DNA of 40,000 bases from Blastocatellia bacterium (GTDB lineage: Bacteria > Acidobacteriota > Blastocatellia > UBA7656): assembly GCA_963726785.1 (NCBI GenBank), contig CAVSDJ010000007.1, positions 2,169,248 to 2,209,247 on the forward strand, read 5' to 3'. How positions within the stretch are numbered: position 1 is the first letter of the stretch; every line of letters begins with the position of its first letter. The translations under genes were made by a program, and so were the position numbers. Under the pieces are notes generated by a model. That model saw only the letters and a program-made list of their open reading frames with translations. It made no database searches and was not told the origin of the DNA. Of this stretch, positions 13,610 to 39,639 are shown piece after piece.

Positions 13610-13639
13610 TTTGATAACGACCTTTCTTTATCCGAAAGA

Positions 13640-25125: not shown

Positions 25126-26082
25126 TCAGCTTCTGTCCAAAGGACTCCTCACACCTTTTCCTCCTCGATTCAGTACGTGCGTGTAGATCATCGTAGTGCT
25201 TACGTCTTGATGGCCCAGCAATTCTTGCACGGTACGTATATCGTAGCCGTCCTCTAACAAGTGGGTAGCAAAGCTATGTCGAAATGTGTGGCAACTACCG
25301 GGCTTGCTAATGCCCGCTGTTCGTATTGCTGCTTTGACCGCTTTCTGTAACACTTGCTCATTCACATGGTGGCGTCGCACTGCTTGAGAGCGCGGGTCAA
25401 TAGAGCGCTTCGATGCCGGAAAGACATACTGCCAGTGCCATTCCCGGTTGGCATTGCGATATTTCCTCTCCAGAGCGAAAGGCAAGTAAGCCTCGCCGTA
25501 TCCTTCATCAAGGTCAAGCTTGTGAAGGGCTTTAACTTTAGCCAGATGCCTGTGCATTTGTGGTCTGACAGAGTCAGGTAGTATGGTGACGCGGTCCCTC
25601 CCGCCTTTGCCATCGCGGACTATTACCTGACTCATGCTGAAATCCAAATCTTTGACGCGGAGTCTCAGACACTCCATCAATCTCAGACCAGAGCCGTACA
25701 AGAGGCTTGCCATCAGCCAAAGCGAGCCATCGAGGTGACCTAAAATAGCCTGTACTTCCGCCTTGGTGAAGACGACAGGCAACCTTGAAGGCTTCTGAGC
25801 CCGCTCTACATTGTCAAGCCAGTCTAGCGGCTGTTTAAGAACATCTCTGTAAAGGAACAGGATAGCGCTCATAGCCTGATTCTGAGTAGAAGCAGCAACA
25901 TTCCTATCTAAAGCGAGGTGAGAAAGGAAGGCAGTGACTTCAAGGTGGCCCATATCAGAAGGGTGGCGTTTGTTGTGGAATAGGATAAACTCTTTAACCC
26001 ATCGGAGGTAAGCTTGTTCAGTCCTGATGCTGAAATGTCTAACTCGGATGGTGTTGCGAACCTGATCGAGAAGTTTAGGCAT
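25126..26082 (-). CDS. intI: Integron integrase (tyrosine recombinase)
   Basis: 318 aa. Box [17 protein letters not shown], box [41 protein letters not shown], and the integron-specific extra segment [30 protein letters not shown]. Divergent from an attC array. Confidence 0.93.
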
Positions 26083-26170: not shown

Positions 26171-26223
26171 TCGTAAAAGAAGTAAAATTCTACTTCTTTT
26201 ACGAGGTCTACTTCTAGTTAGAC
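26171..26223 (+). other. Candidate attI site
   Basis: GTTAGAC at 26217-26223 is the first R-type box after intI and the first cassette sequence starts at its TT. It is preceded by GTCTAC (26206-26211, imperfect inverse), a third TACTTCT copy, and a perfect 14 bp inverted repeat at 26171-26184 / 26191-26204. Confidence 0.6.
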
Positions 26224-26428
26224 AGTCGCGTACGAAATAGAGTGAGTACTCGCACGCCTCCGCGCCGCTAGTGGGCGACATTGTTCCGAGTCACCGCCGC
26301 GCCGCAGTAGCGTTAGGCTGAATATGCAAATAGAAAGAATGAGCAGCATCATGCTAGCTAACACTGTAGGATTGATTCGGCAGCAAGCGGCGCGGCAGTG
26401 CGCGCAGAGGCGTGTGACAAGACACGAT
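26218..26428. other. ORF-less cassette, family S1 copy 1 (cassette 1)
   Basis: 211 bp. Shares blocks tcgcgtacgaaat, acgccNccg, cgccgcgccgcag, gcaagcggcgcggc, gacacgat with 33149-33357, 38107-38317 and 38664-38872. Confidence 0.85.
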
Positions 26429-26531
26429 GTCTAACTATTGCATGCAGCGGAGCGCAGTATGCAAATTTCACATGGTTCGCACTAGCTGAGTCGGTCAACA
26501 GCCCCGCGCCCGCTGATGCCGGGCGTTGGGC
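26429..26531 (+). repeat. attC site 1 (103 bp class)
   Basis: R'' GTCTAAC at 26429, L''/L' GCAGCGGAGCGC...GCGCCCGCTGAT, R' GTTGGGC at 26525. Confidence 0.85.
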
Positions 26532-26565
26532 GGCTATTCTCGACAACAGTCAGATGAGGTGAACC

Positions 26566-26979
26566 ATGAAAGCGAAAATAATATGCTTAACTTTACTGTT
26601 ATTTCTAGGAGGCTGCGAGAGCTACTCAGGAAATAAAGAAAGTGCGCGTAAATTGGCAGAGGGTGGAGAGTGGATAGTTAAATTCACGGAATTTGATAAG
26701 GTTCCGGAAAGGCGCAATCCCGATGGTACTACAACAACTACAACTTTTGGCTCGGCTTGTGCATATTGTGAAGGTGAGGAGGGTATTCAGGTTAGGATCG
26801 GCAAGAATCCAGACCCATATGACGTTGGAGATGAGGCACTATGCATCTTGAAATCCCATCCTCAATTTGCAGACTTTGCGCGATTACGTAGAGGGGACAA
26901 AGTACGTTTTGAGTTTACAGATACTCCGATTCAGACTGTATGCAGAACCGATGGCATGTTCATAAAACTTAAACGGTAG
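26566..26979 (+). CDS. Cassette-encoded lipoprotein, unknown function
   Basis: 137 aa. Lipobox LFLGGC after MKAKIICLTLL. AGGTGA RBS. Cassette 2. Confidence 0.7.
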   Translation: MKAKIICLTLLLFLGGCESYSGNKESARKLAEGGEWIVKFTEFDKVPERRNPDGTTTTTTFGSACAYCEGEEGIQVRIGKNPDPYDVGDEALCILKSHPQFADFARLRRGDKVRFEFTDTPIQTVCRTDGMFIKLKR

Positions 26980-27024
26980 GATTACTATATTCCTGAAAGG
27001 TTCTTCTGGATTGATATACACGCC

Positions 27025-27117
27025 GCCCAACAATCGCATGCAGTGGAGCGCGGCGAGCGAATTTCTTATCATACTTTCAGTGTTATGCGCCGCGCCCACT
27101 GATGCGCGGCGTTAGGC
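27025..27117 (+). repeat. attC site 2 (93 bp)
   Basis: R'' GCCCAAC at 27025, GCAGTGGAGCGCGG...CCGCGCCCACTGAT, R' GTTAGGC at 27111. Confidence 0.8.
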
Positions 27118-27157
27118 TTGCTTAAACAGTTCGCCGACAACTTGAGTAATTCGCACT

Positions 27158-27841
27158 ATGACTTGGAAAGATTATCAGGAAGAGACCGCTGAGTTTTTTC
27201 GCTCTCTTGGCCTAGAAGCCCAGACGGATGCAAGAGTCCAAGGAGTTCGTACGCAGCACGATATTGACGTACTGGTTAAATCGCACCACGCCGGCTTTGA
27301 GGTAACCTGGATCGTTGAATGCAAGAAATGGAATACAAGAGTTTCAAAGCTTCATGTTCTAGCACTTCGCGAAATAGTGAGCGACCTAGGTGCGGATAGA
27401 GGTATCTTACTCTCGGAAAGCGGATTTCAAAGCGGAGCCATCGAGGCAGCTAACTTGACAAATGTTCAAGTCACCTCTCTTTCGGAAGCCCGAATCAAAT
27501 CTGAGCATGACATCAATGCTATGCGCCTACGCGACCTTTACGACCGCACAGAGACCTGCAAGGCAAGGTACTGGGATATTCCTAAATACACTCGAATTGA
27601 GCATGGTCTGCGTCCAGATGTCGGAGCGATTGGCTACTCTGGTAATATCGTAATATCGGCTGCGGAAGAGTTGCTGAGCAAAGGCTTACGAGGCAAATAC
27701 CCTTTCACTGTCGATGCGATGATTCATCCCCCTTTAGCTAAGGTTCCAGAGACGATTACATCTGCTAGACAAATAATTAAAATAGTGGACGTGATGATTA
27801 CTGATCTAGAATCAAAGCTGGACGGTGCAACGCAAGCCTAA
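27158..27841 (+). CDS. Mrr-like restriction endonuclease domain protein (PD-(D/E)XK)
   Basis: 227 aa. HDIDVLV...WIVECKKW...GILLSESGFQSGAIEAA matches the D...(E/Q)xK layout of the Mrr_cat family. Stop TAA lies in attC R''. Cassette 3. Confidence 0.7.
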   Translation: MTWKDYQEETAEFFRSLGLEAQTDARVQGVRTQHDIDVLVKSHHAGFEVTWIVECKKWNTRVSKLHVLALREIVSDLGADRGILLSESGFQSGAIEAANLTNVQVTSLSEARIKSEHDINAMRLRDLYDRTETCKARYWDIPKYTRIEHGLRPDVGAIGYSGNIVISAAEELLSKGLRGKYPFTVDAMIHPPLAKVPETITSARQIIKIVDVMITDLESKLDGATQA

Positions 27842-27928
27842 CAACTGCATACAGCGGAGGCCGCGAAGCACACTTCTTATGGTTACTTTCAATGCCGTTC
27901 GCGGCCCCGCTGATGCTGGGCGTTAGGT
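27836..27928 (+). repeat. attC site 3 (93 bp)
   Basis: R'' GCCTAAC at 27836 (contains the CDS stop), ACAGCGGAGGCCGCGAAG...CGCGGCCCCGCTGAT, R' GTTAGGT at 27922. Confidence 0.8.
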
Positions 27929-28053
27929 CGCTAGCAAGTATGAGTAAATGGGTGGGTGCTGAAAATGGAATACGGCTTTGTTCTTGCAATTAGGTTAATG
28001 GAGGGTTAAAAATTAACACTCTCGTTTATTTGGCGAAATAGCTAGCCCTAAAA

Positions 28054-28647
28054 ATGGACAAGTTTATTCAATTAATATCGGTTCTTCAGTACTTGGCGCT
28101 TATCGTTTCGGCAGCATGGATTTACAGGCTTTATTTGATCAGACGTGAAGGGGAGCCGGGTGGAGAGCTTGAGATCAATGTTGATTTCGTAGGAAAGCAA
28201 AATGCCAAGTGGTTGATAGAGGTGTCGGCTATCCTCACAAACAAGAGCTTTGTCCGCCACAAGTATGAGAACTTTCAAGTAGTAGTTCGTTTTTTAAAGC
28301 CAGAAGACATAATCGAAGACAGAATCCCAGATCATAATAAGAAGCCGACAAACTACCAGATCAACTGCCCGCGTACGATAGATGAACGCATTGACGGAAA
28401 GAAGCGTTACTTTTCTAATGCAGAATATATCAATCCGAGACTGAGTTTTAGACATAGCTACATTACTTTTGTTCCAGAAGAAGCAACGTTTATATGGGTA
28501 CAATGCAAGTTGCAATTCTATACAAAACCCCATTGGCTCGCATGGAAGAATAACAAGGAGAAAAAAAACGCTCAGAAGCTTTTCAAGGTCCCTAGAGAGG
28601 AGTCAGGGAAAGATGTGATGAGCATTGAGAACACGAGTCCTGAGTAG
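28054..28647 (+). CDS. Cassette-encoded membrane-anchored hypothetical protein
   Basis: 197 aa. N-terminal TM LISVLQYLALIVSAAWIYRLYLI. No family recognised. Cassette 4. Confidence 0.6.
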   Translation: MDKFIQLISVLQYLALIVSAAWIYRLYLIRREGEPGGELEINVDFVGKQNAKWLIEVSAILTNKSFVRHKYENFQVVVRFLKPEDIIEDRIPDHNKKPTNYQINCPRTIDERIDGKKRYFSNAEYINPRLSFRHSYITFVPEEATFIWVQCKLQFYTKPHWLAWKNNKEKKNAQKLFKVPREESGKDVMSIENTSPE

Positions 28648-28680
28648 GCCGAAGGGTATATTTGATGAAAACAAACCGCA

Positions 28681-28772
28681 ACCTAACAAGCGCATTCAGC
28701 GGAGGCCGCGAAGCGAGTTTCTCGTCAATCCATCAATACCGCTCGCGGCCCCGCTGATGCGAGGCGTTCGGC
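28681..28772 (+). repeat. attC site 4 (92 bp)
   Basis: R'' ACCTAAC at 28681, TTCAGCGGAGGCCGCGAAG...CGCGGCCCCGCTGAT, R' GTTCGGC at 28766 (one deviation from GTTRRRY). Confidence 0.75.
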
Positions 28773-28868
28773 GTCACTACGATGGACGCTCCGTGCAAAT
28801 GAACTCATATGGAACTTGCTTGCTTATGTCAATGATATTCCGGCTCCGAAGCCGACTTATGATTAGCT

Positions 28869-29246
28869 ATGCCTAAGAATGATACGTTCTCTGATGATGT
28901 GGTCGAATTGTTGCGACAATCCAAGATCATCGGCGTCCGAGCGGGGACTGTGCACCGATATACGGGCGTCTGGCTCGTGGTTGTTGAAGGCAGGCTCTTT
29001 GTCCGTTCTTGGAATGACAAGCCGACAGGGTGGTACCGCGCCTTCATAAAAGAACCCAATGGGAGCATTCAGGTGGCAGGGCTGGAGATGACTGTGCGAG
29101 CCAAGCTCACACGAAGCGCGCGAATCCGCAAGGCAGTGACTGAGGCATTGGGCCAGAAGTACAACACGAAAGCATCTCGGAAGTGGGTTGAGGGATTCGC
29201 CGAGCTAGGGCGTGAGTTGACGACGCTAGAACTGGTTCCCGGCTAA
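28869..29246 (+). CDS. DUF2255-like protein
   Basis: 125 aa. GVWLVVVEGRLFVRSWNDKPTGWYRAF resembles DUF2255 family members as I recall them. Cassette 5. Confidence 0.6.
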   Translation: MPKNDTFSDDVVELLRQSKIIGVRAGTVHRYTGVWLVVVEGRLFVRSWNDKPTGWYRAFIKEPNGSIQVAGLEMTVRAKLTRSARIRKAVTEALGQKYNTKASRKWVEGFAELGRELTTLELVPG

Positions 29247-29306
29247 GGTACAGGCGATGAGTGCAAAGTGAATGCGTTGATGGTTGCAAGCTGGTTGTGC
29301 CGTGCC

Positions 29307-29399
29307 GCCGAACAATCGCATCAACCGGAGCGCGCGAAGCAAATTTCTCGTGGTTTCTTTCAGCGCCGCTCGCGCGCCCGGTTATGCGGGGCGTTGGGC
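29307..29399 (+). repeat. attC site 5 (93 bp)
   Basis: R'' GCCGAAC at 29307, CAACCGGAGCGCGCG...CGCGCGCCCGGTTATG (stem arms covary relative to other sites), R' GTTGGGC at 29393. Confidence 0.75.
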
Positions 29400-29467
29400 C
29401 CCTGCTCGTGCCTTCTTGAAGAGGCAGTGATATATTTATTGCCGTACTAGAACTTGGAGGTAACAAA

Positions 29468-30031
29468 GTGGCATCTTTACCTAAAACCTATATCACCTCT
29501 GAAGAGTATCTCGCACTTGATCGAAAAGCTGATGTTAAAAGCGAGTATTATGCAGGTCAGATTATAGCTTTTGCAGGTGCTAGTAAAAGACATAACCTTA
29601 TAGTCGCCAATGTCCTTGCAGGTATCCATCGCCAGTTAATAGACCGGCCTTGTAATGTGTATCCGAGTGATATGCGAATAAGGATTAGCAAAACTGGGAT
29701 GTATGCTTATCCCGACGTTGTTGTGACTTGCGGTGAAGAACAGTTCGCTGACGAAAATAGTGACATTCTGCTAAACCCTATTGTATTGATAGAAGTCCTA
29801 TCTGAATCCACAGCCAATTATGATCGAGGAGATAAGTTTGAGCACTACCGGCGGATAGAGTCTTTGCGTGAATACATCTTAGTGTTCCAAGAGCTACATA
29901 GAGTAGATCAGTATGTACGCCAGAATGATACTCAATGGTTGTTGACTGAGTTTCACACTCCTAAAGATATAATTAAACTCAATTCAATCACTTGTGAGCT
30001 TGCCGTCAAAGAGATATACGCAAAGCTATAA
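29468..30031 (+). CDS. Uma2 family (DUF820) endonuclease-like protein
   Basis: 187 aa. EEYLALDRKADVKSEYYAGQI...YPDVVVTCG...LIEVLSESTANYDRGDKFEHYRRIESLREYILV is typical of Uma2/DUF820. GGAGG RBS, GTG start. Cassette 6. Confidence 0.75.
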   Translation: MASLPKTYITSEEYLALDRKADVKSEYYAGQIIAFAGASKRHNLIVANVLAGIHRQLIDRPCNVYPSDMRIRISKTGMYAYPDVVVTCGEEQFADENSDILLNPIVLIEVLSESTANYDRGDKFEHYRRIESLREYILVFQELHRVDQYVRQNDTQWLLTEFHTPKDIIKLNSITCELAVKEIYAKL

Positions 30032-30051
30032 ATATTTTGTTTCCAACGGTG

Positions 30052-30142
30052 GCCCAACAAACGCATGCAGCGGAGGCCGCGAAGCCAGTTTCTCATCGTT
30101 AGCCAGTTATTCACGCGGCCCCGCTGATGCTGGGCGTTAGAC
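30052..30142 (+). repeat. attC site 6 (91 bp)
   Basis: R'' GCCCAAC at 30052, GCAGCGGAGGCCGCGAAG...CGCGGCCCCGCTGAT, R' GTTAGAC at 30136. Confidence 0.85.
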
Positions 30143-30544
30143 CCTTGCGGCGGTGCTGTTGAGGATCAGTGTTCGGGTTGCCAATCGAAATTCCAACCAA
30201 CTGCCTCTTTCTCGCTTCACACCTCCCTTCCTGCCGCCGCTTGTTTCTTCTTCTTTCTTGCTCCTGCTTTGCTGCTTGCTTCCACACTCTTGCTATGAAG
30301 TCTGGCAGCCCTAATGTGGGATTGCACAAGATTAGCCGGGATGGTTCACCAAGCACTAGCACAAAGCTATGCTCTTGCTTGCTGACAGATCGTCGCCTGT
30401 TGTAGCGTTTGTGGGTCGGTCATTTTGGCAATAGAGTAGAAGCAACAATCAGCATCAGCCAACAGCAGAGGGAAACGAGCAAGGGTTCAGATAAAAGCAG
30501 AAGGAAGAAATTGGGATGGAATCGGTTTGGTAAAATGAAAGCGG
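30137..30544. other. ORF-less cassette, family L variant a, copy 1 (cassette 7)
   Basis: 408 bp. Identical to 38970-39377. Shares 5' block cccttgcg..ggaggatca.tg.tcg..ttgc.aat and central gctatgc.cttgct.gc.gacagatcgt.gcctg.tgtagcg with the other L cassettes. Confidence 0.85.
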
Positions 30545-30647
30545 GTCTAACTACAGCATGCAGCGGAGCGCGGTAAGCACAGTTGAAAAGGCTTGGGCTA
30601 GCTGAGTTAGTCTGCAACAACGCGCCCGCTGATGCTGGGCGTTAGAC
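30545..30647 (+). repeat. attC site 7 (103 bp class)
   Basis: R'' GTCTAAC at 30545, GCAGCGGAGCGCGGTAAGC...CGCGCCCGCTGAT, R' GTTAGAC at 30641. Confidence 0.85.
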
Positions 30648-31037
30648 CCTTGCGACTGCGTGGCGGAGGATCAATGTTCGAGTTGCTAATCAATTCATTC
30701 GAGCCAGATGCCTCCTCTCGCTTCACTTCACGGCTGCCGTTGCCGCTTGTTCTTCCTTCCTTTATGCGCTCTGTGTGTGCTCGTTGCCTTTTCTTTCATC
30801 CCATAGTCTATAGTTGTCCAGATGCAGGCTCGGGCAAGAAGCGAGCAGGAGAGCAACAAGCGGCAGCAGTTAGCTATGCGCTTGCTCGGCGACAGATCGT
30901 TGCCTGTTGTAGCGCTCGATATCAACAAGGCCATGCGGCATAAACAGGGTGGAGCAACAGTGACCAACAGATTTGAGTCGAAGCAGAAGGGAGAAAGAAG
31001 AATCTGGCAATGAAACAGGTCATAGAAATAAAGACGG
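30642..31037. other. ORF-less cassette, family L variant b (cassette 8)
   Basis: 396 bp. The 3' ~190 nt are nearly identical to variant c while the 5' half is diverged. ORFs present are not conserved in frame with the other L copies. Confidence 0.8.
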
Positions 31038-31127
31038 GTCTAACTAGAGCATGCAGCGGAGGCCGCTAACAGAGGTTCAAATGAAAGCGAGTGCAACACG
31101 CGGCCCCGCTGATGCTGGGCGTTAGAC
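31038..31127 (+). repeat. attC site 8 (90 bp)
   Basis: R'' GTCTAAC at 31038, GCAGCGGAGGCCGC...CGCGGCCCCGCTGAT, R' GTTAGAC at 31121. Confidence 0.85.
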
Positions 31128-31220
31128 CCCTTGACTGCAAGCTTCAATTGCCTGCCTGTGCTGCTTGATAAATCACAAAAATGATTGTATCTTCTTTGTA
31201 GAAACATTGGGAGGTAACAA

Positions 31221-31463
31221 ATGCGGACTCAAATACAAAAATGGGGCAATAGCCTTGCTCTTCGGATACCCAAGTCATTCGCTACAGAATCAAGCATTGA
31301 AGAAGGTTCTCTTGTAGATATGTCCATAATCGAGGGAAGGTTAGTTATAGAACCTATCTCTGAGCCGACATATTCTCTTGAAGAACTCTTGGCAGGAATC
31401 ACTAAAGAAAACATCCACGCGGAAGTTGACACTGGCAGTCCGACCGGCAAAGAGGTGTGGTGA
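31221..31463 (+). CDS. mazE: MazE/AbrB-family antitoxin
   Basis: 80 aa. MRTQIQKWGNSLALRIPKSFA SpoVT/AbrB swapped-hairpin motif. GGAGG RBS. Stop overlaps the mazF start (TGATG). Cassette 9. Confidence 0.85.
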   Translation: MRTQIQKWGNSLALRIPKSFATESSIEEGSLVDMSIIEGRLVIEPISEPTYSLEELLAGITKENIHAEVDTGSPTGKEVW

Positions 31464-31798
31464 TGCCAAGGGTTTATGTACCTCATCGCGGTGATGTAGT
31501 GTGGATGAGCTTTAACCCACAAGCGGGACACGAGCAATCAGGCAGAAGGCCAGCAGTTGTAATTTCTCCGGCTGCCTACAACGGCAAAGTAGGTCTGGCA
31601 ATATTATGTCCTGTCACCAATCAGATCAAAGGCTATCCGTTCGAGGTGATAATACCGAAGGGGCTGAAAGTAACTGGAGCAGTTTTGTCTGACCAAGCGA
31701 AAAGCCTTGATTGGAAAGCAAGAAAAGCAGAATTGATTTGCAAACTGCCGGAATCGGTAATAAATGACGTATTACAGAAGCTGAATACATTGTTGTGA
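31463..31798 (+). CDS. mazF: MazF/PemK-family endoribonuclease toxin
   Basis: PHRGDVVWMSFNPQAGHEQSGRRPAVVISPAAYN...CPVTNQIKGYPFEV is typical of MazF/PemK. The ORF track starts 6 nt earlier at a GTG. Confidence 0.85.
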   Translation: MPRVYVPHRGDVVWMSFNPQAGHEQSGRRPAVVISPAAYNGKVGLAILCPVTNQIKGYPFEVIIPKGLKVTGAVLSDQAKSLDWKARKAELICKLPESVINDVLQKLNTLL

Positions 31799-31836
31799 TC
31801 AACAAATCTGAGATATGCCCGCTGTTCGAAAGCGGG

Positions 31837-31926
31837 GTCTAACAAACGCATGCAGCGAAGGCCGCGAACAACTATTCGAATGCTTGCTAGTGCTGCGCGC
31901 GGCCCCGCTGATGCTGGGCGTTAGAC
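31837..31926 (+). repeat. attC site 9 (90 bp)
   Basis: R'' GTCTAAC at 31837, GCAGCGAAGGCCGCGAAC...CGCGGCCCCGCTGAT, R' GTTAGAC at 31920. Confidence 0.85.
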
Positions 31927-31946
31927 CCCTATACTGAGGAAGCTGG

Positions 31947-32501
31947 ATGAACGACACCGGAACGAGAGAAAGATCATGGCTCAGGCTGCCCGTTGTTGCA
32001 GCAAGTTCTGAATATCTGGTGATGGGCCACCTGATGCGCCGAAATATCTTGACCTATAAAGCTCCTCAAAATAATGAGGGCTACGATCTAATCTGTATCC
32101 ACCCCAATCCTCGGCATGTTCTAAAGAATAGTGATCTTGCACAGGTCAGAGTCCAGGTAAAGAGTCGTTACGCTACCGATTGTGATAGAGGCTTTCCAGT
32201 GAAAGATGTTTCCTTTGATGCCTTCGATTTCTTGATAGTTGTTTTCCTGAACATTGGCAAGTTCTCAGGTAAAAATGACGGCTCTCAAGGCGCACGCGAA
32301 ATAGAATTCTATACTCTGCCGAATGAGTTTATAAGGAAGCATCATAACAAGAGTTCCTCTTGGCAGAAGGTAAGGTTAAGAGCACTTGAAAACGAGATCG
32401 AACAGTACAAGAATGAGAAAGGTTTTGAACAGATAGCACAAGCATTGGGCATTCCAAAACCGATAAAGAGAAGAACGGAGTTGCCCAACAATGGGGTCTA
32501 A
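31947..32501 (+). CDS. Hypothetical protein with PD-(D/E)XK nuclease-like core
   Basis: 184 aa. SEYLVMGHLMRRNILTYKAPQNNEGYDLICI...VRVQVKSRY...FDFLIVVFL resembles the D...QxK layout of PDDEXK_5-type endonucleases (from memory). Stop TAA lies in attC R''. Cassette 10. Confidence 0.5.
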   Translation: MNDTGTRERSWLRLPVVAASSEYLVMGHLMRRNILTYKAPQNNEGYDLICIHPNPRHVLKNSDLAQVRVQVKSRYATDCDRGFPVKDVSFDAFDFLIVVFLNIGKFSGKNDGSQGAREIEFYTLPNEFIRKHHNKSSSWQKVRLRALENEIEQYKNEKGFEQIAQALGIPKPIKRRTELPNNGV

Positions 32502-32587
32502 CTTCAGCATGCAGCGGAGGCCGCGAAGCAGGTTTCTTATCATTCTGCCAGTGTCGCTCGCGGCCCCGCTGATGCTGGGCGTTAGAC
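32496..32587 (+). repeat. attC site 10 (92 bp)
   Basis: R'' GTCTAAC at 32496 (contains the CDS stop), GCAGCGGAGGCCGCGAAG...CGCGGCCCCGCTGAT, R' GTTAGAC at 32581. Confidence 0.85.
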
Positions 32588-32610
32588 AGCTTCGCGGAGA
32601 AGGTGAGTAT

Positions 32611-33036
32611 ATGAAGATAAAACGAATGATGCTGTTGGTTCCAATCCTCTTTTATGCATGTAGCGCAGAAGATTCTCAAACTTACACATTTTATAGTCTT
32701 GAGTCTGGGAAGACGATCAAGATTGTACAGATGGGCCAATGCTCTTTGAATTTTCCTGAAACCGAAGAGACTGGTATAGCTCTAACCTATCAAACCAGTC
32801 TTGCAGTCGGAAACGAGTCCAAACTCGACCAAGAGATGGCTGAGATATCGGAATGGCTTGAGGTGGAAGCAGAAAAAATTGGTGTGAGGCTTATAAATAT
32901 CAATGCTGTTGAAACGATAGGTGCATCAAAGCCGAAGTCGAATGGCAAGAGTATAGTATTGAGGAAGGAAATAGATGGTCAGTGGCATTCAATAGAGTTG
33001 TTACCAGAAAATAGATATGTAAGTCGAACTAACTAA
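32611..33036 (+). CDS. Cassette-encoded lipoprotein, unknown function
   Basis: ATG at 32611 after GGAGAAGGTGAG. MKIKRMMLLVPILFYAC lipobox. The ORF-track start at 32491 lies inside the preceding attC and is rejected. Cassette 11. Confidence 0.65.
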   Translation: MKIKRMMLLVPILFYACSAEDSQTYTFYSLESGKTIKIVQMGQCSLNFPETEETGIALTYQTSLAVGNESKLDQEMAEISEWLEVEAEKIGVRLININAVETIGASKPKSNGKSIVLRKEIDGQWHSIELLPENRYVSRTN

Positions 33037-33064
33037 ATTCAAGGGGGACTGTCGCCACAGGGCT

Positions 33065-33154
33065 GTCTAACATTTGCATGCAGCGGAGGCCGCAAACAAG
33101 GACTCAAATGAATGCGACTGCCACACGCGGCCCCGCTGATGCTGGGCGTTAGAC
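33065..33154 (+). repeat. attC site 11 (90 bp)
   Basis: R'' GTCTAAC at 33065, GCAGCGGAGGCCGCAAAC...CGCGGCCCCGCTGAT, R' GTTAGAC at 33148. Confidence 0.85.
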
Positions 33155-33357
33155 AGTCGCGTATGAAATACTGCGAGTGAACGTACGCCGCCGCGCCGTC
33201 AGTCGGCCAGATTGTTGCGAGTGATCGCCGCGCCGCAGAAGCGTATAGTTGAGTCTGCAAAAAGAAAGCTTGAGCAGGTGTGCAATTGGCAAGAGCGAAA
33301 GAAAGCAAGAGGCAAGCGGCGCGGCAGAAGGCGCAGCGGCGTCTGCCAAGACACGAT
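33149..33357. other. ORF-less cassette, family S1 copy 2 (cassette 12)
   Basis: 209 bp. Same conserved blocks as the other S1 copies. Confidence 0.85.
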
Positions 33358-33460
33358 GTCTAACAACAGCATGCAGCGGAGCGCGGTTATCACGCTTGAA
33401 ATGGCTTGGGCTAGCTGAGTTAGTCTGAATCAACGCGCCCGCTGATACTGGGCGTTAGAC
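33358..33460 (+). repeat. attC site 12 (103 bp class)
   Basis: R'' GTCTAAC at 33358, GCAGCGGAGCGCGGTTATC...CGCGCCCGCTGAT, R' GTTAGAC at 33454. Confidence 0.85.
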
Positions 33461-33851
33461 CCTTGCGTGAGTGCGGTGGAGGATCAATGCTCGACTTGCC
33501 AATGATTCCTTCCAACACAATGCCTCTTCTCAGTTTCGGCCTTCATCTTGCCCTGTCGCTTGTTCATCTCTGGGTCACACCCCTCTTGCCTTCTTGCTCA
33601 GGATTGCGCTCTCTCAATGCGATCTCGCTCTACTGATGCAGTTGCGAACAAACGGACAACAATGCTTGAACAAGCGGCAGGGCAAAGCTATGCTCTTGCT
33701 CGCCGACAGATCGTTGCCTGATGTAGCGCTTGATAACAACGAGGCCATGCGGCATAAACAGGGTGGAGCAACAGCGACCAACAGATTTGAGTCGAAGCAG
33801 AAGGGAGAAAGAAGAATCTGGCAATGAAACAGGTCATAGAAATAAAGACGG
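33455..33851. other. ORF-less cassette, family L variant c, copy 1 (cassette 13)
   Basis: 397 bp. Differs from 37361-37757 at a single position (33501 a vs 37407 t). Confidence 0.85.
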
Positions 33852-33944
33852 GTCTAACTAGAGCATGCAGCGGAGGCCGCGAAGCGAGTTTCTCATGGTT
33901 ACTTTCAGTTCTCCGCGCGGCCCCGCTGATGCTGGGTGTTAGAC
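33852..33944 (+). repeat. attC site 13 (93 bp)
   Basis: R'' GTCTAAC at 33852, GCAGCGGAGGCCGCGAAG...CGCGGCCCCGCTGAT, R' GTTAGAC at 33938. Confidence 0.85.
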
Positions 33945-34008
33945 GTCTGACTTTTCAGCAACTCTCCAATCTGCCGCAATGCGAAGGCCGAAATGATATA
34001 CTTCACCT

Positions 34009-34302
34009 ATGCAATTTGAGTGGGACTCAACAAAAGCAACGGCTAATCTATCAAAGCACGGAGTCTCATTCGATGAAGCCAAGTCTGTCTTTGACGATCC
34101 GCTCTACGTCGATTTTTACGATCCTGATCATTCAGACGGGGAGAATGGTTACATCATTATTGGGCAGTCTCAGCAAGGTCGTTTATTGATGGTGTCGTAC
34201 ACGGAAAGAAATGATACTATCCGAATTATCAGTTCGAGAGAAGTAACAGCAACGGAGGTAACTGTTCAGACTTCGGCGAATGGGCGAAGCTCAGCGATTT
34301 GA
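34009..34302 (+). pseudogene. brnT: BrnT-family (DUF497) toxin gene interrupted at codon 83 by an IS
   Basis: MQFEWDSTKATANLSKHGVSFDEAKSVFDDPL...RIISSREVTATE is BrnT-like. After 34257 the frame runs into IS sequence. Joining 34257 to 35708 restores ...TATERREAYEEG-stop, overlapping the brnA start. Confidence 0.8.
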
Positions 34303-35699
34303 CATAGGGTGTAAACTTTGCGCGTGAAGCTTGATCTCGACAACGCTACCCGCGAAGAGTTAATCCAACTCAACTTGCAGTTGTTTGCTCAACTTCAAGT
34401 TTTGCAGGAACGTGTCAAACAGCTAGAAGCAGAACTGGAATCTTTGCGCGGCGGCGGCTCACACAGCAACCCTCCTAGCTTCGTCAAGGCTAATCGCCCT
34501 GCTCGCAATAAGAAAAAGAAGCGCAAGAAGCGTCTGCACGGATTCTCGCGCAGGCTTGATTGGGTTACTGCTCGCGTCGAGCACTCGCTTAATCAGTGCC
34601 CAGAGTGTCTAGTTTCGCTCAAAGGCCGACGCGTGGTCAGCTCTCGACAGATCATTGAGCTTCCATCGGTTCAGGTCCAGGTCGTTGAGCACAAACTTGT
34701 AGAGCGGTCTTGTCCCAACTGCCTCAAGCGCTGGACGCCGCCTCTGGATTTATCATCACTTGCAGTAGGCAAACAGCGATTCGGCATTAGCGTTCAATCC
34801 GAAGTAGCACTGTTGCGCGAGCAATGCAGGCTTCCCTTCAGAGTCATACAAGAGTATCTCCAAGCTAGATTCAACCTGCGGATAAGTCTTGGCCAGATAG
34901 TGGCCTTAGTTGAAGGTGTGGCTCGGCGAGGCAAAGCAATAGTCGAATCTTTCAAAGACGAAATTCGAGCCTCTCCTGTAGTAAATGGCGATGAAACGAG
35001 TTGGCGAGAAAACGGGCAAAACGGATATGTGTGGAGTTTCTCAACCGATAAGGTCAGATATTTTCTATACCGCAAAAGCCGTTCAGCAGAAGTTGTGAAA
35101 GAAGTTCTCGGCCAGCAGTTCGAAGGCGTTGTGGTGAGCGATTTCTACGCGGCCTACAACGCGCATCTGGGATTGCACCAGCGATGCTGGGTGCATCTGC
35201 TGAGAGATATACACGAACTGAAAGAGAAGCATGCCAAAGATAAAGGGTTGAAAAAGTGGGCGGTAGCAGTCAAAGCGATCTATGAGGAAGCTAAGGCATA
35301 CAAAGGAGCAAACGCGAGGTTAGGGCCGGTAGAGCAGAAAGCAGAGCGAGTAAAGCGTCAGCGAGAGTATGAACAAAAGTTGATGAGAGTGTGCCGACCA
35401 CACTTGAAGAAGAAGAGGCCGCAGTCAACGCTATGTGAAAGGATAGAGAGATACTTGCCGGAGATGTTCGTGTTCATAGCAGACGCTCGTGTGCCGTCAG
35501 ATAATAACGCGGCAGAGCGAAGTGTGAGACATGTAGTTGTAAGTCGCAAGATCAGTGGAGGGACGAGATCTGAAACGGGGAGCGAGACAAAGAGTATATT
35601 GGCATCATTGTTTGGAACGTGGAGATTGCAAGGACTAGATTTCTATCAATGCTGCTGGAATTTACTGGCAGCAAATAATCCGACACTCTGAACAGTTAC
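34258..35699 (+). mobile_element. IS66-family insertion sequence (single-ORF type), 1442 bp
   Basis: Perfect 13 bp terminal inverted repeats gtaactgttcaga (34258-34270) / tctgaacagttac (35687-35699). 8 bp direct target duplication caacggag at 34250-34257 and 35700-35707. Confidence 0.9.
34318..35691 (+). CDS. IS66-family transposase
   Basis: 457 aa. N-terminal leucine zipper, zinc-finger CPEC...CPNC, DDE core (DETSWRE...VVSDFYAAY...CWVHLLRD...NNAAERSVR) as in IS66 TnpC. Confidence 0.85.
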   Translation: MRVKLDLDNATREELIQLNLQLFAQLQVLQERVKQLEAELESLRGGGSHSNPPSFVKANRPARNKKKKRKKRLHGFSRRLDWVTARVEHSLNQCPECLVSLKGRRVVSSRQIIELPSVQVQVVEHKLVERSCPNCLKRWTPPLDLSSLAVGKQRFGISVQSEVALLREQCRLPFRVIQEYLQARFNLRISLGQIVALVEGVARRGKAIVESFKDEIRASPVVNGDETSWRENGQNGYVWSFSTDKVRYFLYRKSRSAEVVKEVLGQQFEGVVVSDFYAAYNAHLGLHQRCWVHLLRDIHELKEKHAKDKGLKKWAVAVKAIYEEAKAYKGANARLGPVEQKAERVKRQREYEQKLMRVCRPHLKKKRPQSTLCERIERYLPEMFVFIADARVPSDNNAAERSVRHVVVSRKISGGTRSETGSETKSILASLFGTWRLQGLDFYQCCWNLLAANNPTL

Positions 35700-35717
35700 C
35701 AACGGAGCGGGAAGCGT

Positions 35718-35957
35718 ATGAAGAAGGTTGAAACAGAAATGGATGATGATCTTCGGCCAGAATATGAGCTGAAAAGCTTGCGTGTAAGAAGGCTAGGACC
35801 AGGACGTAAGAGTTTCGGAGGGCTAGTGGTTCGCCTAGAACCAGACGTTGCAGAGGTCTTTCCAGATGCAGAGTCAGTGAACGAGGCGCTACGGTTCCTG
35901 ATAAGAGTGACTAAAGAGAATAAGCCCTCAGTTAGTGACAGCCGAGGCGACGTCTGA
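35718..35957 (+). CDS. brnA: BrnA-like antitoxin
   Basis: 79 aa. DDLRPEYELKSL...LVVRLEPDVAEVFPDAESVNEALRFLI resembles antitoxins paired with BrnT. The present TGA stop is partly supplied by the adjacent IS. Confidence 0.7.
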   Translation: MKKVETEMDDDLRPEYELKSLRVRRLGPGRKSFGGLVVRLEPDVAEVFPDAESVNEALRFLIRVTKENKPSVSDSRGDV

Positions 35958-37273
35958 GTGATCGGGGACATGGGTAACAAAAAAGTCCGGGCACATGGGT
36001 TACACTTTTTTCTTATGTCGCCACAGCTTCCCCAACTCGTCTTCGATTCGCATCTGCGCTTCGATTAGACGACCGAGTTTGACTGGGCCAAAGTAGACGT
36101 TCCATATACCATTATCTATTTCTTCGAGGCCGACCCATTGACCGGCACACGTTATACTGACATTTACCCAGTCACAGTTCCAGCGGATTCCTCCGTTGTA
36201 GCTCACGTAGCGCGTTTCATAATGCGCAGGATATTCCAAGGCCGGAACTTTCTTAGGGTACGGGCGCGGGCTTGGCTGGTAGACCGAAGCTGGCGTTTCA
36301 AGATTGATCGCTTCGTGAGGGCGAACTTCGTTGTACTCTTGCCGGAAAGCGTTGAACTTGCGCTGCTGCGCTCGCAGATTGCCAGCCGCAGGTCGCGTGG
36401 TTTCTGCTTTTAACGTGCGATGCATACGTTCGTGTCGGCCATTTTGTTGGGGCTTACCCGGCTCGATCAGTTCGGGCAGTATGCCAAGTTGAATCCACCA
36501 GGCTGATAGTGAAGAAAGGCGGGCAAGCGAGACGGTGGCAAAGGGCACGCCGTTATCAGTGCGGATGCGCTCAGGCAAGCCGAACTCGCGAAATACCCTC
36601 TCGAATACTGATTTGGCGGAAGCACACTCAGTCGTAAACAAAGCTTGGCAGCCAAGCAAGTAGCGCGAGAATCCATCGGTGATGGTCAGAGGATAGCAAT
36701 AGATACCGTCGTGAGTTTTGAACTGGCCTTTGAAGTCAGCGCACCAGACTTGATTGGGAGCGGCTATAATAGAAGAAGGTTTGCCGGGATGAGAGAGATG
36801 ACGGCGCTTGCGAGCTTTCTTTACAAGCCCGTGACGAGCGAGTAGGTCACAGACAGTTGTTCGAGCGGGTCAGATGCGGTTGGGATCTCGTTTAGACAAC
36901 AGCTTGAGTAGTTTCTTCGGTCCCCAGGTAGGGTGAAGGCGACGAGCATCAAGCAGGGCGTCAACGATGTCAGGATCAGTTTGGTGAGGGCATGAATTAG
37001 GCTTGCGAGAGCGATCTTCAAGGCCGGAGATGGAGTCTTGCTGGTAGCGATTGATCCACTTATAGGCAGTCTTTCTGCTGATGCCGTAATGGAGGCATAG
37101 TTCTGTGATGGAAAGAGATTGACGAAGGAAATCGGCGATGAACTGAGTCTTGTGGTCCATAGGTGATAAATTACTCCAGGGCATCTTGCACCTCCTTTAA
37201 TGGAGGACAGTATGCCGGAAAAGTGTTACCCATGTACCTGGACTAATCTGTTACCTATGTACCTGGACTATAC
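35956..37273 (-). mobile_element. IS481-family insertion sequence (boundaries approximate)
   Basis: About 45 bp imperfect terminal inverted repeats, each holding two copies of a GTCC(A/G)GG(T/C)ACATGGGT(A/T)AC-like motif. Candidate 5 bp target duplication cgtct at 35951-35955 and 37274-37278. Confidence 0.65.
36000..37184 (-). pseudogene. IS481-family transposase with an in-frame TGA stop
   Basis: N-terminal HTH ORF (36870-37184) and the rve/DDE ORF (36000-36659) are in the same frame. Translation is continuous (…DPNRI-TGA-PARTTVCDLLARHGLV…WCADFKGQF…) except for TGA at 36870-36872. Confidence 0.8.
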
Positions 37274-37274
37274 C

Positions 37275-37366
37275 GTCTAACAAGCGCATGCAGCGGAGGC
37301 CGCGAATTGGGTTTCTCATGGTTGCTTGACTGCCGCTCGCGGCCTCGCTGATGCTTGGCGTTAGAC
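37275..37366 (+). repeat. attC site 14 (92 bp)
   Basis: R'' GTCTAAC at 37275, GCAGCGGAGGCCGCGAAT...CGCGGCCTCGCTGAT, R' GTTAGAC at 37360. Confidence 0.85.
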
Positions 37367-37757
37367 CCTTGCGTGAGTGCGGTGGAGGATCAATGCTCGA
37401 CTTGCCTATGATTCCTTCCAACACAATGCCTCTTCTCAGTTTCGGCCTTCATCTTGCCCTGTCGCTTGTTCATCTCTGGGTCACACCCCTCTTGCCTTCT
37501 TGCTCAGGATTGCGCTCTCTCAATGCGATCTCGCTCTACTGATGCAGTTGCGAACAAACGGACAACAATGCTTGAACAAGCGGCAGGGCAAAGCTATGCT
37601 CTTGCTCGCCGACAGATCGTTGCCTGATGTAGCGCTTGATAACAACGAGGCCATGCGGCATAAACAGGGTGGAGCAACAGCGACCAACAGATTTGAGTCG
37701 AAGCAGAAGGGAGAAAGAAGAATCTGGCAATGAAACAGGTCATAGAAATAAAGACGG
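37361..37757. other. ORF-less cassette, family L variant c, copy 2 (cassette 15)
   Basis: 397 bp. 1 mismatch to 33455-33851. Confidence 0.85.
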
Positions 37758-37850
37758 GTCTAACTAGAGCATGCAGCGGAGGCCGCGAAGCGAGTTTCTC
37801 ATGGTTACTTTCAGTTCTCCGCGCGGCCCCGCTGATGCTGGGTGTTATAC
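37758..37850 (+). repeat. attC site 15 (93 bp)
   Basis: Identical to attC 13 except R' reads GTTATAC (37844-37850). Confidence 0.85.
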
Positions 37851-38009
37851 GCTCGCGTGCGAAATGACTTGAATACACGAACGCCTCCGCGCTGGCAGGT
37901 CTACAATGACTTTCAGTGAGATGCCGCGCTTGTCTTGACTGGCGCGAGTTTCAATTCTATTTTGGAGGCGCGGCCTTTGGGCGCTGAGGCGTGCGGGCAA
38001 AGACGCGCC
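37845..38009. other. ORF-less cassette, family S2 copy 1 (cassette 16)
   Basis: 165 bp. Shares ttatacgctcgcgt.cgaaat..cttgaatacacg.acgcc.ccgcgc, tgccgcgc, ttgac, ggcgcggc with 38415-38579 and 39475-39639. Confidence 0.85.
37935..37963 (+). promoter_or_regulatory. Candidate sigma70-type promoter inside S2 copy 1
   Basis: TTGACT - 17 nt - TATTTT, pointing into the downstream cassettes. Confidence 0.35.
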
Positions 38010-38112
38010 GTCTAACTACAGCATGCAGCGGAGCGCGGTTATCTGGTTTCACATGATGCGCGTTGGCTGAGTTGGTCTACAGCAACGCGCCCGCTGATAC
38101 TGGGCGTTAGAC
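38010..38112 (+). repeat. attC site 16 (103 bp class)
   Basis: R'' GTCTAAC at 38010, GCAGCGGAGCGCGGTTATC...CGCGCCCGCTGAT, R' GTTAGAC at 38106. Confidence 0.85.
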
Positions 38113-38317
38113 AGTCGCGTACGAAATGCTTTGAGTGCCCGAACGCCGCCGTGCCGTCAGTGGACGAGATTGATCTGAGCCATCGCCGCGCCGCAGAAAC
38201 GTGAAGCCGAATATGCAAACAGAAGCATAGAACAGCATCGTGCAAGCTGATATTGTAAGAGTGATTTGGCAGCAAGCGGCGCGGCAGAAGGCCCGGCGGC
38301 GTATCAAATGACACGAT
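38107..38317. other. ORF-less cassette, family S1 copy 3 (cassette 17)
   Basis: 211 bp. Same conserved S1 blocks. Confidence 0.85.
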
Positions 38318-38420
38318 GTCTAACTACAGCATGCAGCGGAGCGCGGTAAGCTGGTTTCAAATGGCTTGCTCCGGCTGAGTGGGTCTACAACAACGCGCCC
38401 GCTGATGCTGGGCGTTATAC
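38318..38420 (+). repeat. attC site 17 (103 bp class)
   Basis: R'' GTCTAAC at 38318, GCAGCGGAGCGCGGTAAGC...CGCGCCCGCTGAT, R' GTTATAC at 38414. Confidence 0.85.
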
Positions 38421-38579
38421 GCTCGCGTACGAAATGGCTTGAATACACGGACGCCTCCGCGCTTGCGAGTCTGCAATCACTTATAGTGAGATGCCGCGCC
38501 TGAGTTGACACGCTGCTGAAACGAAACTGTTTTGGAGGCGCGGCAGAGGGGCGCGGCGGCGTGGAGGCGATGACGCTCG
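38415..38579. other. ORF-less cassette, family S2 copy 2 (cassette 18)
   Basis: 165 bp. Same S2 conserved blocks. The central ~35 nt differ from copies 1 and 3. Confidence 0.85.
38505..38533 (+). promoter_or_regulatory. Candidate promoter inside S2 copy 2 (weaker -10)
   Basis: TTGACA - 17 nt - TGTTTT at the position homologous to the other S2 copies. Confidence 0.25.
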
Positions 38580-38669
38580 GTCTAACTACAGCATGCAGCG
38601 GAGCGCGCGAAGGAGGCTTCTCATGCTTGTCAGTGATTGCCGCGCGCCCGCTGATACTGGGCGTTAGAC
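38580..38669 (+). repeat. attC site 18 (90 bp, hybrid of the two classes)
   Basis: R'' GTCTAAC at 38580. Stem GCAGCGGAGCGCGCGAAG...CGCGCGCCCGCTGAT combines the long-class stem with the short-class centre. R' GTTAGAC at 38663. Confidence 0.85.
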
Positions 38670-38872
38670 CTCGCGTACGAAATGAAGTGAGTGCCCTAAC
38701 GCCGCCGCGCCGCCAGTCGGCGACATTGTTGCGAGTGATCGCCGCGCCGCAGAGGCGCTAGGCGGAATACGCAAATAGAAGGATGGATAGCATGCGACAG
38801 GCTGAAACTGTAACAGTGAAGACGAGGCAAGCGGCGCGGCGGGAGGCTTGGCGGCGTGTGACAAGACACGAT
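38664..38872. other. ORF-less cassette, family S1 copy 4 (cassette 19)
   Basis: 209 bp. Same conserved S1 blocks. The 5' end is 1 nt shorter (ttagacctcgcg vs ttagacagtcgcg). Confidence 0.85.
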
Positions 38873-38975
38873 GTCTAACTATAGCATGCAGCGGAGCGCG
38901 GTATGCACACTTCAAATGGCTTTCGCTGGCTCAATCGATCTACAGCCCCGCGCCCGCTGATGCTAGTCGTTAGAC
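38873..38975 (+). repeat. attC site 19 (103 bp class)
   Basis: R'' GTCTAAC at 38873, GCAGCGGAGCGCGGTATGC...CGCGCCCGCTGAT, R' GTTAGAC at 38969. Confidence 0.85.
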
Positions 38976-39377
38976 CCTTGCGGCGGTGCTGTTGAGGATC
39001 AGTGTTCGGGTTGCCAATCGAAATTCCAACCAACTGCCTCTTTCTCGCTTCACACCTCCCTTCCTGCCGCCGCTTGTTTCTTCTTCTTTCTTGCTCCTGC
39101 TTTGCTGCTTGCTTCCACACTCTTGCTATGAAGTCTGGCAGCCCTAATGTGGGATTGCACAAGATTAGCCGGGATGGTTCACCAAGCACTAGCACAAAGC
39201 TATGCTCTTGCTTGCTGACAGATCGTCGCCTGTTGTAGCGTTTGTGGGTCGGTCATTTTGGCAATAGAGTAGAAGCAACAATCAGCATCAGCCAACAGCA
39301 GAGGGAAACGAGCAAGGGTTCAGATAAAAGCAGAAGGAAGAAATTGGGATGGAATCGGTTTGGTAAAATGAAAGCGG
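38970..39377. other. ORF-less cassette, family L variant a, copy 2 (cassette 20)
   Basis: 408 bp. Identical to 30137-30544 (the ORF track shows identical spurious ORFs in both). Confidence 0.85.
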
Positions 39378-39480
39378 GTCTAACTACAGCATGCAGCGGA
39401 GCGCGGTAAGCACAGTTGAAAAGGCTTGGGCTAGCTGAGTTAGTCTGCAACAACGCGCCCGCTGATGCTGGGCGTTATAC
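39378..39480 (+). repeat. attC site 20 (103 bp class)
   Basis: Identical to attC 7 except R' reads GTTATAC (39474-39480). Confidence 0.85.
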
Positions 39481-39639
39481 GCTCGCGTACGAAATAACTT
39501 GAATACACGGACGCCGCCGCGCAGGCAGGTCTGCAATCACTTTGAGTGTGGTGCCGCGCCTGAGTTGACTGGCGCGAGTTTCAATTCTATGTTGAGGGCG
39601 CGGCAGAGGGGCGCGGAGGCGTGGTTGCAAAGACGCGAG
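39475..39639. other. ORF-less cassette, family S2 copy 3 (cassette 21)
   Basis: 165 bp. Same S2 conserved blocks. Confidence 0.85.
39565..39593 (+). promoter_or_regulatory. Candidate sigma70-type promoter inside S2 copy 3
   Basis: TTGACT - 17 nt - TATGTT. The next cassette carries a + strand ORF at 39900. Confidence 0.35.

Follow-up and report, generated by a model that had tools for sequence, protein, structure and literature searches.

L, a family of gene-less integron cassettes with a conserved core and a covarying long-range stem in a Blastocatellia bacterium

The 40,000-nt stretch of DNA analyzed here (the window; contig CAVSDJ010000007.1 of assembly GCA_963726785.1, positions 2,169,248 to 2,209,247, from a Blastocatellia bacterium) contains a sedentary chromosomal integron. 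Its integrase gene, intI, encodes a tyrosine recombinase with the integron-integrase pair of Pfam domains (Table 1), and the relatives of this protein are labelled 'integron integrase' in their source records. About 21 attC sites of the form GTCTAAC..GCATGCAGCGGAG....CCGCTGATGCTGGGCGTTAGAC follow one another on the plus strand from the attI crossover to past position 39742; the pattern used for the 3' side of attC had no match in 100 shuffles. The array comprises at least 21 plus-strand cassettes, and the coding cassettes all have this orientation. The products of the coding cassettes are typical for such arrays (Mrr-like nuclease, DUF2255, Uma2, MazE/MazF and BrnT). Integrons are usually viewed as stores of protein-coding genes. 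In this array, 12 of the 21 complete cassettes at 26219-39738 lack a recognizable gene. These cassettes without an open reading frame (ORF) belong to three families, L (five copies), M (four copies) and N (three copies), of which L is the subject of this report.

An earlier note on this DNA had described L as five copies of an ORF-less cassette in three variants, La, Lb and Lc. All five copies were found at the positions it gave, and a family profile matches each of them in nhmmer with E values of 1e-108 to 1e-112. Each L unit is bounded by attC, which bears out the view that these are ORF-less cassettes of an integron array. We add the limits of the unit, which runs from the TT of G|TTAGAC to the end of its own attC. 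Counting two further members from a second array (Ld and Le, see below), the first bases of L cassettes are TTAGAC, TTAAAC or TTATAC, and the 3' end has the form GTCTAAC...GCGTT. The five window copies lie in an array beside intI and attI, in the orientation of that array, between attC sites and in unit-precise copies, as integron cassettes do.

The copies also record how L has spread. La1 and La2 are 100% identical over 505 nt, and Lc1 and Lc2 differ at a single position (A at 33501, T at 37407). For each pair the match breaks off no more than a few conserved core bases from the G|TT crossover, and the cassettes on either side are different. Cassette-precise duplicates with different flanks point to copying by the integrase and not to segmental duplication, and they indicate that L is mobile as a discrete unit. 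The mosaic pattern described earlier for Lb and Lc is also present: identity between the two is 57% across the 5' half and 93.5% across the 3' half, which argues for recombination among members of the family. Additionally, the two ends of the cassette are complementary. Pairing of GGGTCTAAC with GTTAGACCC lengthens the R''/R' pairing of attC to 9 bp and holds in all L variants; the apparent outermost helix of the body, AGACCC/GGGTCT, is the R'/R'' pairing of the cassette's own attC plus a CC/GG extension.

Table 1. Positions of the integron, the L family and the other ORF-less families (window coordinates unless contig L001 is named)
Feature	Position	Strand	Remarks
Integron integrase gene intI	25126-26082	minus	Pfam Phage_integrase 1.9e-35 and Phage_int_SAM_4 1.1e-30
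attI crossover G|TT	26218|26219		read from junction sequence
Cassette La1	30137-30641	plus	body 30137-30544; own attC, R'' from 30545, R' GTTAGAC 30641-30647
Cassette Lb	30642-31121	plus	body 30642-31037; own attC from 31038
Cassette Lc1	33455-33938	plus	body 33455-33851; own attC from 33852
Cassette Lc2	37361-37844	plus	copy of Lc1, 1 nt different
Cassette La2	38970-39474	plus	identical to La1
Cassette Ld	L001 6455-6085	minus	
Cassette Le	L001 4003-3590	minus	
5' block, Lc1	33460-33503	plus	CCCTTGCG-N11-GAnnATnnnTGnTCGnnTTGCnAAT; in three of five variants, Shine-Dalgarno-like GGAGGA 4 nt ahead of an invariant (A/G)TG
5' block, other copies	La1 30142-30185; Lb 30647-30690; La2 38975-39018		
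Central block, Lc1	33687-33728	plus	42 nt, most conserved part
Central block, other copies	La1 30366-30407; Lb 30873-30914; Lc2 37593-37634; La2 39199-39240		
GA-rich 3' block, Lc1	33797-33816	plus	GCAGAAGGGAGAAAGAAGAA
GA-rich 3' block, other copies	La1 30497-30510; Lb 30983-31002; Lc2 37703-37722; La2 39330-39343		
P3 5' arm, Lc1	33548-33566	plus	Lc2 37454-37472; Lb 30739-30751; La degenerate 30231-30246
P3 3' arm, Lc1	33667-33685	plus	Lc2 37573-37591; Lb 30855-30867; La degenerate 30347-30363
GGGTCTAAC at start of own attC	33850-33858	plus	complementary to GTTAGACCC, 33454-33462, at cassette 5' end
N family, window	37845-38106, 38415-38663, 39475-39736	plus	
N family, L001	5275-5014, 12235-11984, 11973-11714	minus	
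M family	26219-26527, 33149-33454, 38107-38414, 38664-38969	plus	

Within the L body, the three shared blocks reported earlier (a 5' block, a central block and a purine-rich 3' block) are all present. Conservation reaches its maximum in the central block, at 0.96 over alignment columns 256-270 compared to 0.4-0.7 in the variable parts, and this block holds a small hairpin, CGACAG-N8-CTGTTG. The asymmetry of composition is real as well: the 5' part of the body is 66-70% pyrimidine and the 3' part 64-69% purine.

We used a strict pattern of the central block to scan genomes and metagenomes. It had no match in 185,579 species-representative genomes and matched one metagenome contig, L001, which carries a second attC array with its cassettes on the minus strand, including two L cassettes, Ld and Le, and three cassettes of the N family. 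Ld and Le retain all three shared blocks as well as the long-range stem described below. Their attC is of a third type; the L body is thus joined to at least three types of attC. A HMMER scan of 1.84 billion protein representatives identified one more variant through P0121, an annotated 63-aa 'protein' that is 86% identical to the un-annotated ORF at 30822-31013 in Lb. P0121 comes from the 2,912,118-bp contig that carries intI, at a place outside the window, so this genome has at least one additional L variant, situated further along in the array. The annotation of P0121 and not of the equivalent Lb ORF shows that ORF calling in L bodies is inconsistent. The same scan returned two low-identity matches in proteins of 1,630-1,675 aa (E 1.4e-10 and 9.7e-4).

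Other searches were negative. Plasmids gave no match to L in blastn, and L was absent by blastn and nhmmer from 80 integrase-anchored genome loci, in which IntI identity was at most 71%. The contigs of the closest IntI relatives (93%, 90% and 77% identity) hold no L; these loci lie at contig ends, with the arrays unassembled. Three scans of viral contigs gave either no match or chance matches within phage ORFs. Taken together, the searches suggest that the L family is real but rare in current databases.

The L bodies show no sign of coding constraint. In the longest ORFs the frame of the central block is not constant: three occur, giving KLCSCLLTDRRLL, SYALARRQIVACC and KAMLLLADRSLPD, an observation of the earlier note that the translations reproduce. 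Its judgement that protein coding is unlikely also held: in a five-way alignment of La to Le the ratio of nonsynonymous to synonymous differences (pN/pS) is 0.82-0.95 whichever of the six frames is taken, the 5' block is followed by indels of 1-2 nt, and the searches described next gave no protein or Pfam match. In the two blocks that are best conserved, lower ratios (0.41-0.64) occur only in frames with stop codons; frames poor in stops have ratios of 0.73-1.5. No Pfam family matches the L ORFs. Among 5.8 billion protein clusters the Lc ORF has no homologue, and a six-frame concatenate of the five variants has none among the matches listed. From the alignment and these searches we conclude that L is non-coding, although a very short or non-conserved peptide is formally possible.

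Two apparent traces of coding sequence were considered and set aside. In the IMG/VR entries L086-L089, AACAAGCNGCAG-N6-GCTATGC matches fall within phage ORFs that encode ...EQAAAVCYAKW.... The similarity to a non-open frame of the L central region, reading EQAAAxSYALARRQ, is attributed to chance; that frame has stops in three L variants. A 121-aa ORF at 33824-34189 runs from the GA-rich end of Lc1 through attC into the next cassette, and a similar read-through ORF begins at the end of Ld in L001. Both are probably fortuitous.

The long-range stem reported earlier was found exactly as described, in Lc at 33551-33566 and 33667-33682 with one T-G pair and in Lb at 30741-30751 and 30855-30865. It extends further than reported, to 19 bp in Lc and 13 bp in Lb (Table 1). 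This helix, P3, encloses a pyrimidine-rich domain of about 100 nt that varies in sequence, and it abuts the 42-nt central block. Although P3 was proposed from Lb and Lc in the window, it holds out of sample in Ld and Le, where compensatory changes keep the stem in two independent variants of another array. In-register pairing is 19/19 in Lc, 15/16 in Ld and 15/16 in Le, with 13 contiguous pairs in Lb. P3 is present in both the minimum free energy (MFE) fold and the centroid fold of these four variants, with z-scores of -2.0 (Lb), -4.6 (Lc), -1.4 (Ld) and -1.4 (Le). Both sides of the helix change at four positions, and the outer three pairs are CCC/GGG in Lc versus GGG/CCC in Le, covariation for which five sequences give too little power for R-scape-type statistics. 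We rejected two mobile-element identities for P3. It is not an attC, because the 5' arm carries GTT and the 3' arm AAC, both next to the loop (GCTTGTTC / GAACAAGC), the wrong order for the core sites, and it is not a miniature inverted-repeat transposable element, given its compensatory changes and the absence of isolated copies.

The earlier note had suggested a search against Rfam; the whole window, searched with Rfam 15 at gathering threshold, gave no match. With E up to 5, the one hit in positions 30100-34000 was to snoR79, which we attribute to chance (18 bits, where the gathering threshold is 80). A group IIC-attC intron or other mobile RNA was likewise rejected, as there is no Rfam match and the body is about 400 nt rather than at least about 600 nt. 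By eye only, we looked for a LexA box, an integration host factor (IHF) site, a sigma-54 promoter and an ssoA-like CS-6 (TAGCGT), and none was convincingly conserved. Potential antisense targets of L in the window amount to chance matches of 11-13 nt. Because L has the features of an integron cassette, is ORF-less, shows no sigma-70-type promoter and corresponds to no catalogued RNA, we treat it as an addition to a known class and not as a new class. L is a family of gene-less cassettes, a new example of a known but poorly understood kind.

To our knowledge, gene-less cassettes have been noted in many arrays, and we know of almost none that has been characterized beyond a few promoters and one small RNA (sRNA). 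The closest setting is that of Vibrio sp. DAT722, in which 25 of 116 cassette positions are non-coding and were reported to be detectably expressed (PMC2945992). L resembles these in being a whole cassette with its own attC and no gene, present in several copies in a sedentary chromosomal array. It differs in being a defined family that occurs in two arrays and has both a conserved core and a long-range helix that covaries, and the gene-less share is 12/21 here compared to about 22% in DAT722 (PMC2945992). Some Treponema ORF-less cassettes from an oral metagenome are reported to carry promoters (PMC6557892). These share with L the lack of an ORF and a proposed regulatory role within arrays, but L has no conserved sigma-70-like promoter on either strand, whereas the neighboring N family fits the Treponema type.

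Cassette-borne sRNAs have also been reported (reviewed in PMC8876359). As summarized in that review, an integron of Xanthomonas campestris encodes sRNA-Xcc1, which acts in trans (Chen et al. 2011, in PMC8876359). This sRNA offers a non-coding RNA function on an integron cassette of the sort we propose for L. The two have no sequence or Rfam relationship; L is about 400 nt, with no recognized promoter or terminator and no target in the window. Structured DNA provides other parallels. Like P3, attC sites conserve structure above sequence through compensatory changes, and they belong to the same genetic system, with the L ends lengthening R''/R' to 9 bp. However, attC has RYYYAAC...GTTRRRY at the base of its stem, whereas P3 has GTT/AAC at the loop end, a loop of about 100 nt and a place inside the cassette body alongside a normal attC. 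As Weinberg et al. (2017, PMC5737381) pointed out, a search by structure does not tell RNA from motifs of single-stranded DNA (ssDNA) such as attC. The same work describes the DUF1874 motif, a multistem element that recurs in consecutive intergenic regions (Weinberg et al. 2017, PMC5737381). Like L, this motif is non-coding, structured and repeated, its arrangement resembles that of cassettes, and it could be RNA or ssDNA. The DUF1874 motif is found between ORFs, and an unusual attC was the identity suggested for it (PMC5737381), whereas L is a separate cassette body between ordinary attC sites and matched no Rfam family of any kind.

The reading we prefer, at roughly an even chance of being right, is that L is a mobile non-coding cassette, with selection on its body for a nucleic-acid fold together with a sequence core, and that it most likely acts as RNA from read-through of the array, with P3 and the central block serving as a processing or binding module. 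The integron integrase copies and moves the L body with its own attC as one unit, as the cassette-precise duplicates indicate. Selection on the body would act first on the three shared blocks that form the sequence core, second on the 13-19-bp helix P3, which closes the pyrimidine-rich domain of about 100 nt directly upstream of the central block, and third on a conserved composition, rich in pyrimidines toward the 5' end and in purines toward the 3' end. Since L has no promoter of its own, we infer that it would be transcribed as part of array transcripts, on the plus strand, from the promoter Pc or from cassettes of the promoter type such as N. Pairing of the ends and P3 would close the folded transcript into a domain, displaying the central block beside P3 as a possible binding or processing site. 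A long perfect duplex such as P3 would be suited to RNase III-type cleavage, which could release or stabilize a discrete RNA.

Several observations weigh against this reading. It draws on five sequenced variants from two arrays only. No copy of L has a sigma-70 promoter (a site with at least 9/12 matches) on either strand, and none has an intrinsic terminator. La lacks P3 (at most 5 contiguous pairs, z +0.6), yet it is intact and recently duplicated. Over the whole body, MFE z-scores are only -0.3 to -1.4 against dinucleotide shuffles; in favor of the reading, all five variants fold better than shuffles that retain the composition of each half, at z -1.7 to -2.7. RNAalifold predicts 77 pairs, 17 of them with changes on both sides compared to 6.9 in shuffles, but this count is circular, the structure having been derived from the same five sequences. 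Helices other than P3 that were defined in the window variants transfer poorly to Ld and Le, where 61-69% of cells pair versus 28-58% in slid controls. Besides P3, what survives out of sample is a weak, low-complexity CU/GA helix and a small invariant hairpin. The large structured RNA that the earlier note offered as a possibility thus goes beyond what these results support: P3 holds in variants from which it was not derived, whereas the evidence for a global fold of about 400 nt is weak, one variant lacks the stem and no Rfam family matches. The other possibility in that note, a regulatory cassette, may still apply; L has no conserved sigma-70 promoter or intrinsic terminator.

Folding energies are also neutral as to strand and molecule. 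In four variants, folding of the plus strand is more favorable by 14-18 kcal/mol than folding of the minus strand, but shuffles show that this asymmetry follows from G+T content, and folds with DNA parameters are alike on both strands; we therefore rejected assignment of the strand by folding energy. The non-Watson-Crick cells of P3 are evenly divided between G-U and A-C. Given the origin of the asymmetry and this even split, the data fit either strand, and RNA as well as ssDNA.

This leads to an alternative that we consider unlikely but take seriously, in which L is a 'selfish' cassette at the level of ssDNA. The end pairing GTTAGACCC/GGGTCTAAC, the CU/GA helix and P3 would fold so as to join or insulate the flanking attC sites, favoring excision and re-insertion of the cassette without any host product. 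Several features of L fit this alternative: L is multi-copy with recent cassette-precise duplicates, its bodies are carried with three different attC types, pairing between the body ends is conserved, folding with DNA parameters is similar on both strands, and La is still mobile without P3. Integron recombination uses folded ssDNA, which structure-based motif searches cannot separate from RNA (PMC5737381). However, a hairpin role alone leaves the near-invariant sequence of the central block, a predicted loop, unexplained. The CU/GA helix is of low complexity and pairs nearly as well when slid by 3 columns, and P3 has no R''/R' core in attC order. Moreover, we know of no experimental precedent for cassette bodies that enhance excision. 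If L did boost its own excision as ssDNA, it would be a parasitic element of the integron system.

The skewed composition of L raises a different possibility, to which we assign a low probability: L could be a transcriptional insulator. Its C-rich, G-poor and untranslated 5' half would serve as a Rho-loading (rut) site on the plus strand, the complement of the GA-rich 3' half would do likewise on the minus strand, and N-type promoters would restart transcription. The 5' halves of La and Lc lie above the 99th percentile for C>G skew among the 78-nt windows of the 40 kb, with C/G ratios of 4.1 and 2.5, and the 3' halves of La rank with the most G>C-skewed windows. Composition is conserved whereas the sequence of the inner domain is not, no conserved ORF exists through which ribosomes would shield the RNA, and an N cassette with TTGACT-17-TATTTT directly follows 2 of the 5 L copies. 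But Lb is far less skewed, pairing between the 5' and 3' parts also accounts for the composition, and a rut role needs neither P3, which would in fact enclose the C-rich tract, nor an invariant central block.

We likewise give little credence to the idea that L is neutral debris, either a decayed gene or an accidental attC-bearing fragment, whose conserved blocks reflect recent ancestry and gene conversion. The Lb/Lc mosaic does reveal recombination among copies, La has lost P3, the family is rare (one metagenome contig, and no genome or viral match), and annotation of P0121 but not of the equivalent Lb ORF is typical of spurious ORFs. Compensatory changes that maintain P3 pairing in four variants, however, argue for selection. 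The central block is the most conserved part in every comparison, including that between the two arrays, and no frame holds a trace of similarity to a protein family.

It is very improbable that L encodes one or more small peptides, starting at the ATG after GGAGGA or at the one in GCTATGC; an example would be a hydrophobic peptide resembling type I toxins, with 5'-3' pairing that closes its mRNA. Two ATGs, one in the 5' block and one in GCTATGC, are invariant in the five variants, and a Shine-Dalgarno-like GGAGGA (Lb, Lc) or GAGGA (La) stands 4 nt upstream of the first. The pyrimidine-rich region would yield hydrophobic peptides (78 aa in La, 49 aa in Lc), and toxin-antitoxin cassettes are common in the array. 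Nonetheless, the Shine-Dalgarno-like sequence is gone in Ld and Le, and ORF lengths vary from 10 to 89 aa for the first ATG (78, 89, 49, 10 and 15 aa) and from 21 to 75 aa for the second (21, 45, 45, 75 and 34 aa). Just past the conserved nucleotides the frames are thrown out of register by indels of 1-2 nt, the peptides from both ATGs are unrelated outside these nucleotides, and pN/pS is unreduced in every stop-free frame.

That L is a promoter cassette like those of Treponema is barely credible: ORF-less cassettes with promoter activity have been reported (PMC6557892) and the 5' block of Ld contains a perfect TTGACA, but the 9/12 threshold is reached in no L copy on either strand, no -35/-10 pair at fixed spacing is conserved in the five-way alignment by eye, and N, by contrast, keeps TTGAC-17-TATnTT in six copies.

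The N cassettes are ORF-less and about 260 nt long including attC. All 6 copies, from the two arrays, have an invariant TTGAC(T/A), a variable 17-nt spacer and TATnTT on the array strand, and this promoter-like site sits between the nested inverted repeats CGCCTCCGCGC/GCGCGGAGGCG and GCCGCGC/GCGCGGC. To judge by this arrangement, N is probably a mobile promoter cassette. The M cassettes are ORF-less and about 306 nt long, and the first of them, M1, is the first cassette after attI. M has a 5' block, CGCGTACGAAAT, and a GC-rich segment in common with N, and it holds two copies of GCCGCGCCG and one of CGGCGCGGC, so that alternative pairings are possible.

The covarying helix of L, its almost invariant 42-nt core, its recent integrase-mediated duplication and its presence in two arrays make the function of gene-less cassettes testable. 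The wider picture is unusual, with 12 of 21 cassettes non-coding, one promoter-bearing family and a composition in L that resembles Rho-loading sites, and raises the prospect that some integrons carry mobile regulatory parts. A bolder proposal, which we regard as speculative and rather unlikely, would take L, M and N to mean that some soil-bacterial integrons traffic mainly in non-coding modules. L would then be a mobile structured RNA gene of about 400 nt, or an ssDNA device, with a protein- or RNase-binding core beside a covarying helix; the integrase would spread copies of it through the array, and it would act either as a processed regulatory RNA or, together with promoter cassettes such as N, as a terminator or insulator that splits the array into transcription units under separate control.

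The surroundings of the array are those of a bacterial chromosome. Genes for phosphoketolase (XFP) and acetate kinase occupy 11231-14887 on the minus strand, about 10 kb from the integron, an ordinary chromosomal neighborhood that confirms a chromosomal location of the integron itself. The nearest named integrases (IntI identity 71-76%) and the most similar attC sites are from metagenome-assembled genomes of Blastocatellia/Pyrinomonadaceae (Acidobacteriota), in keeping with a probable acidobacterial host. Exact look-ups of the neighboring cassette proteins returned no record. Just upstream of the attI crossover, the region 26171-26206 contains a perfect 13-bp hairpin, CGTAAAAGAAGTA-N-TACTTCTTTTACG. 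Within the array, the BrnT toxin cassette (33939-37360; brnT at 34009-34302) is broken by two insertion elements, an IS66-family transposase gene at 34318-35691 on the plus strand and an IS481-like element at 36000-37184 on the minus strand, the transposase of which is frameshifted. The near-identical Lc1 and Lc2 flank this disrupted cassette, and homologous recombination between them could delete it.

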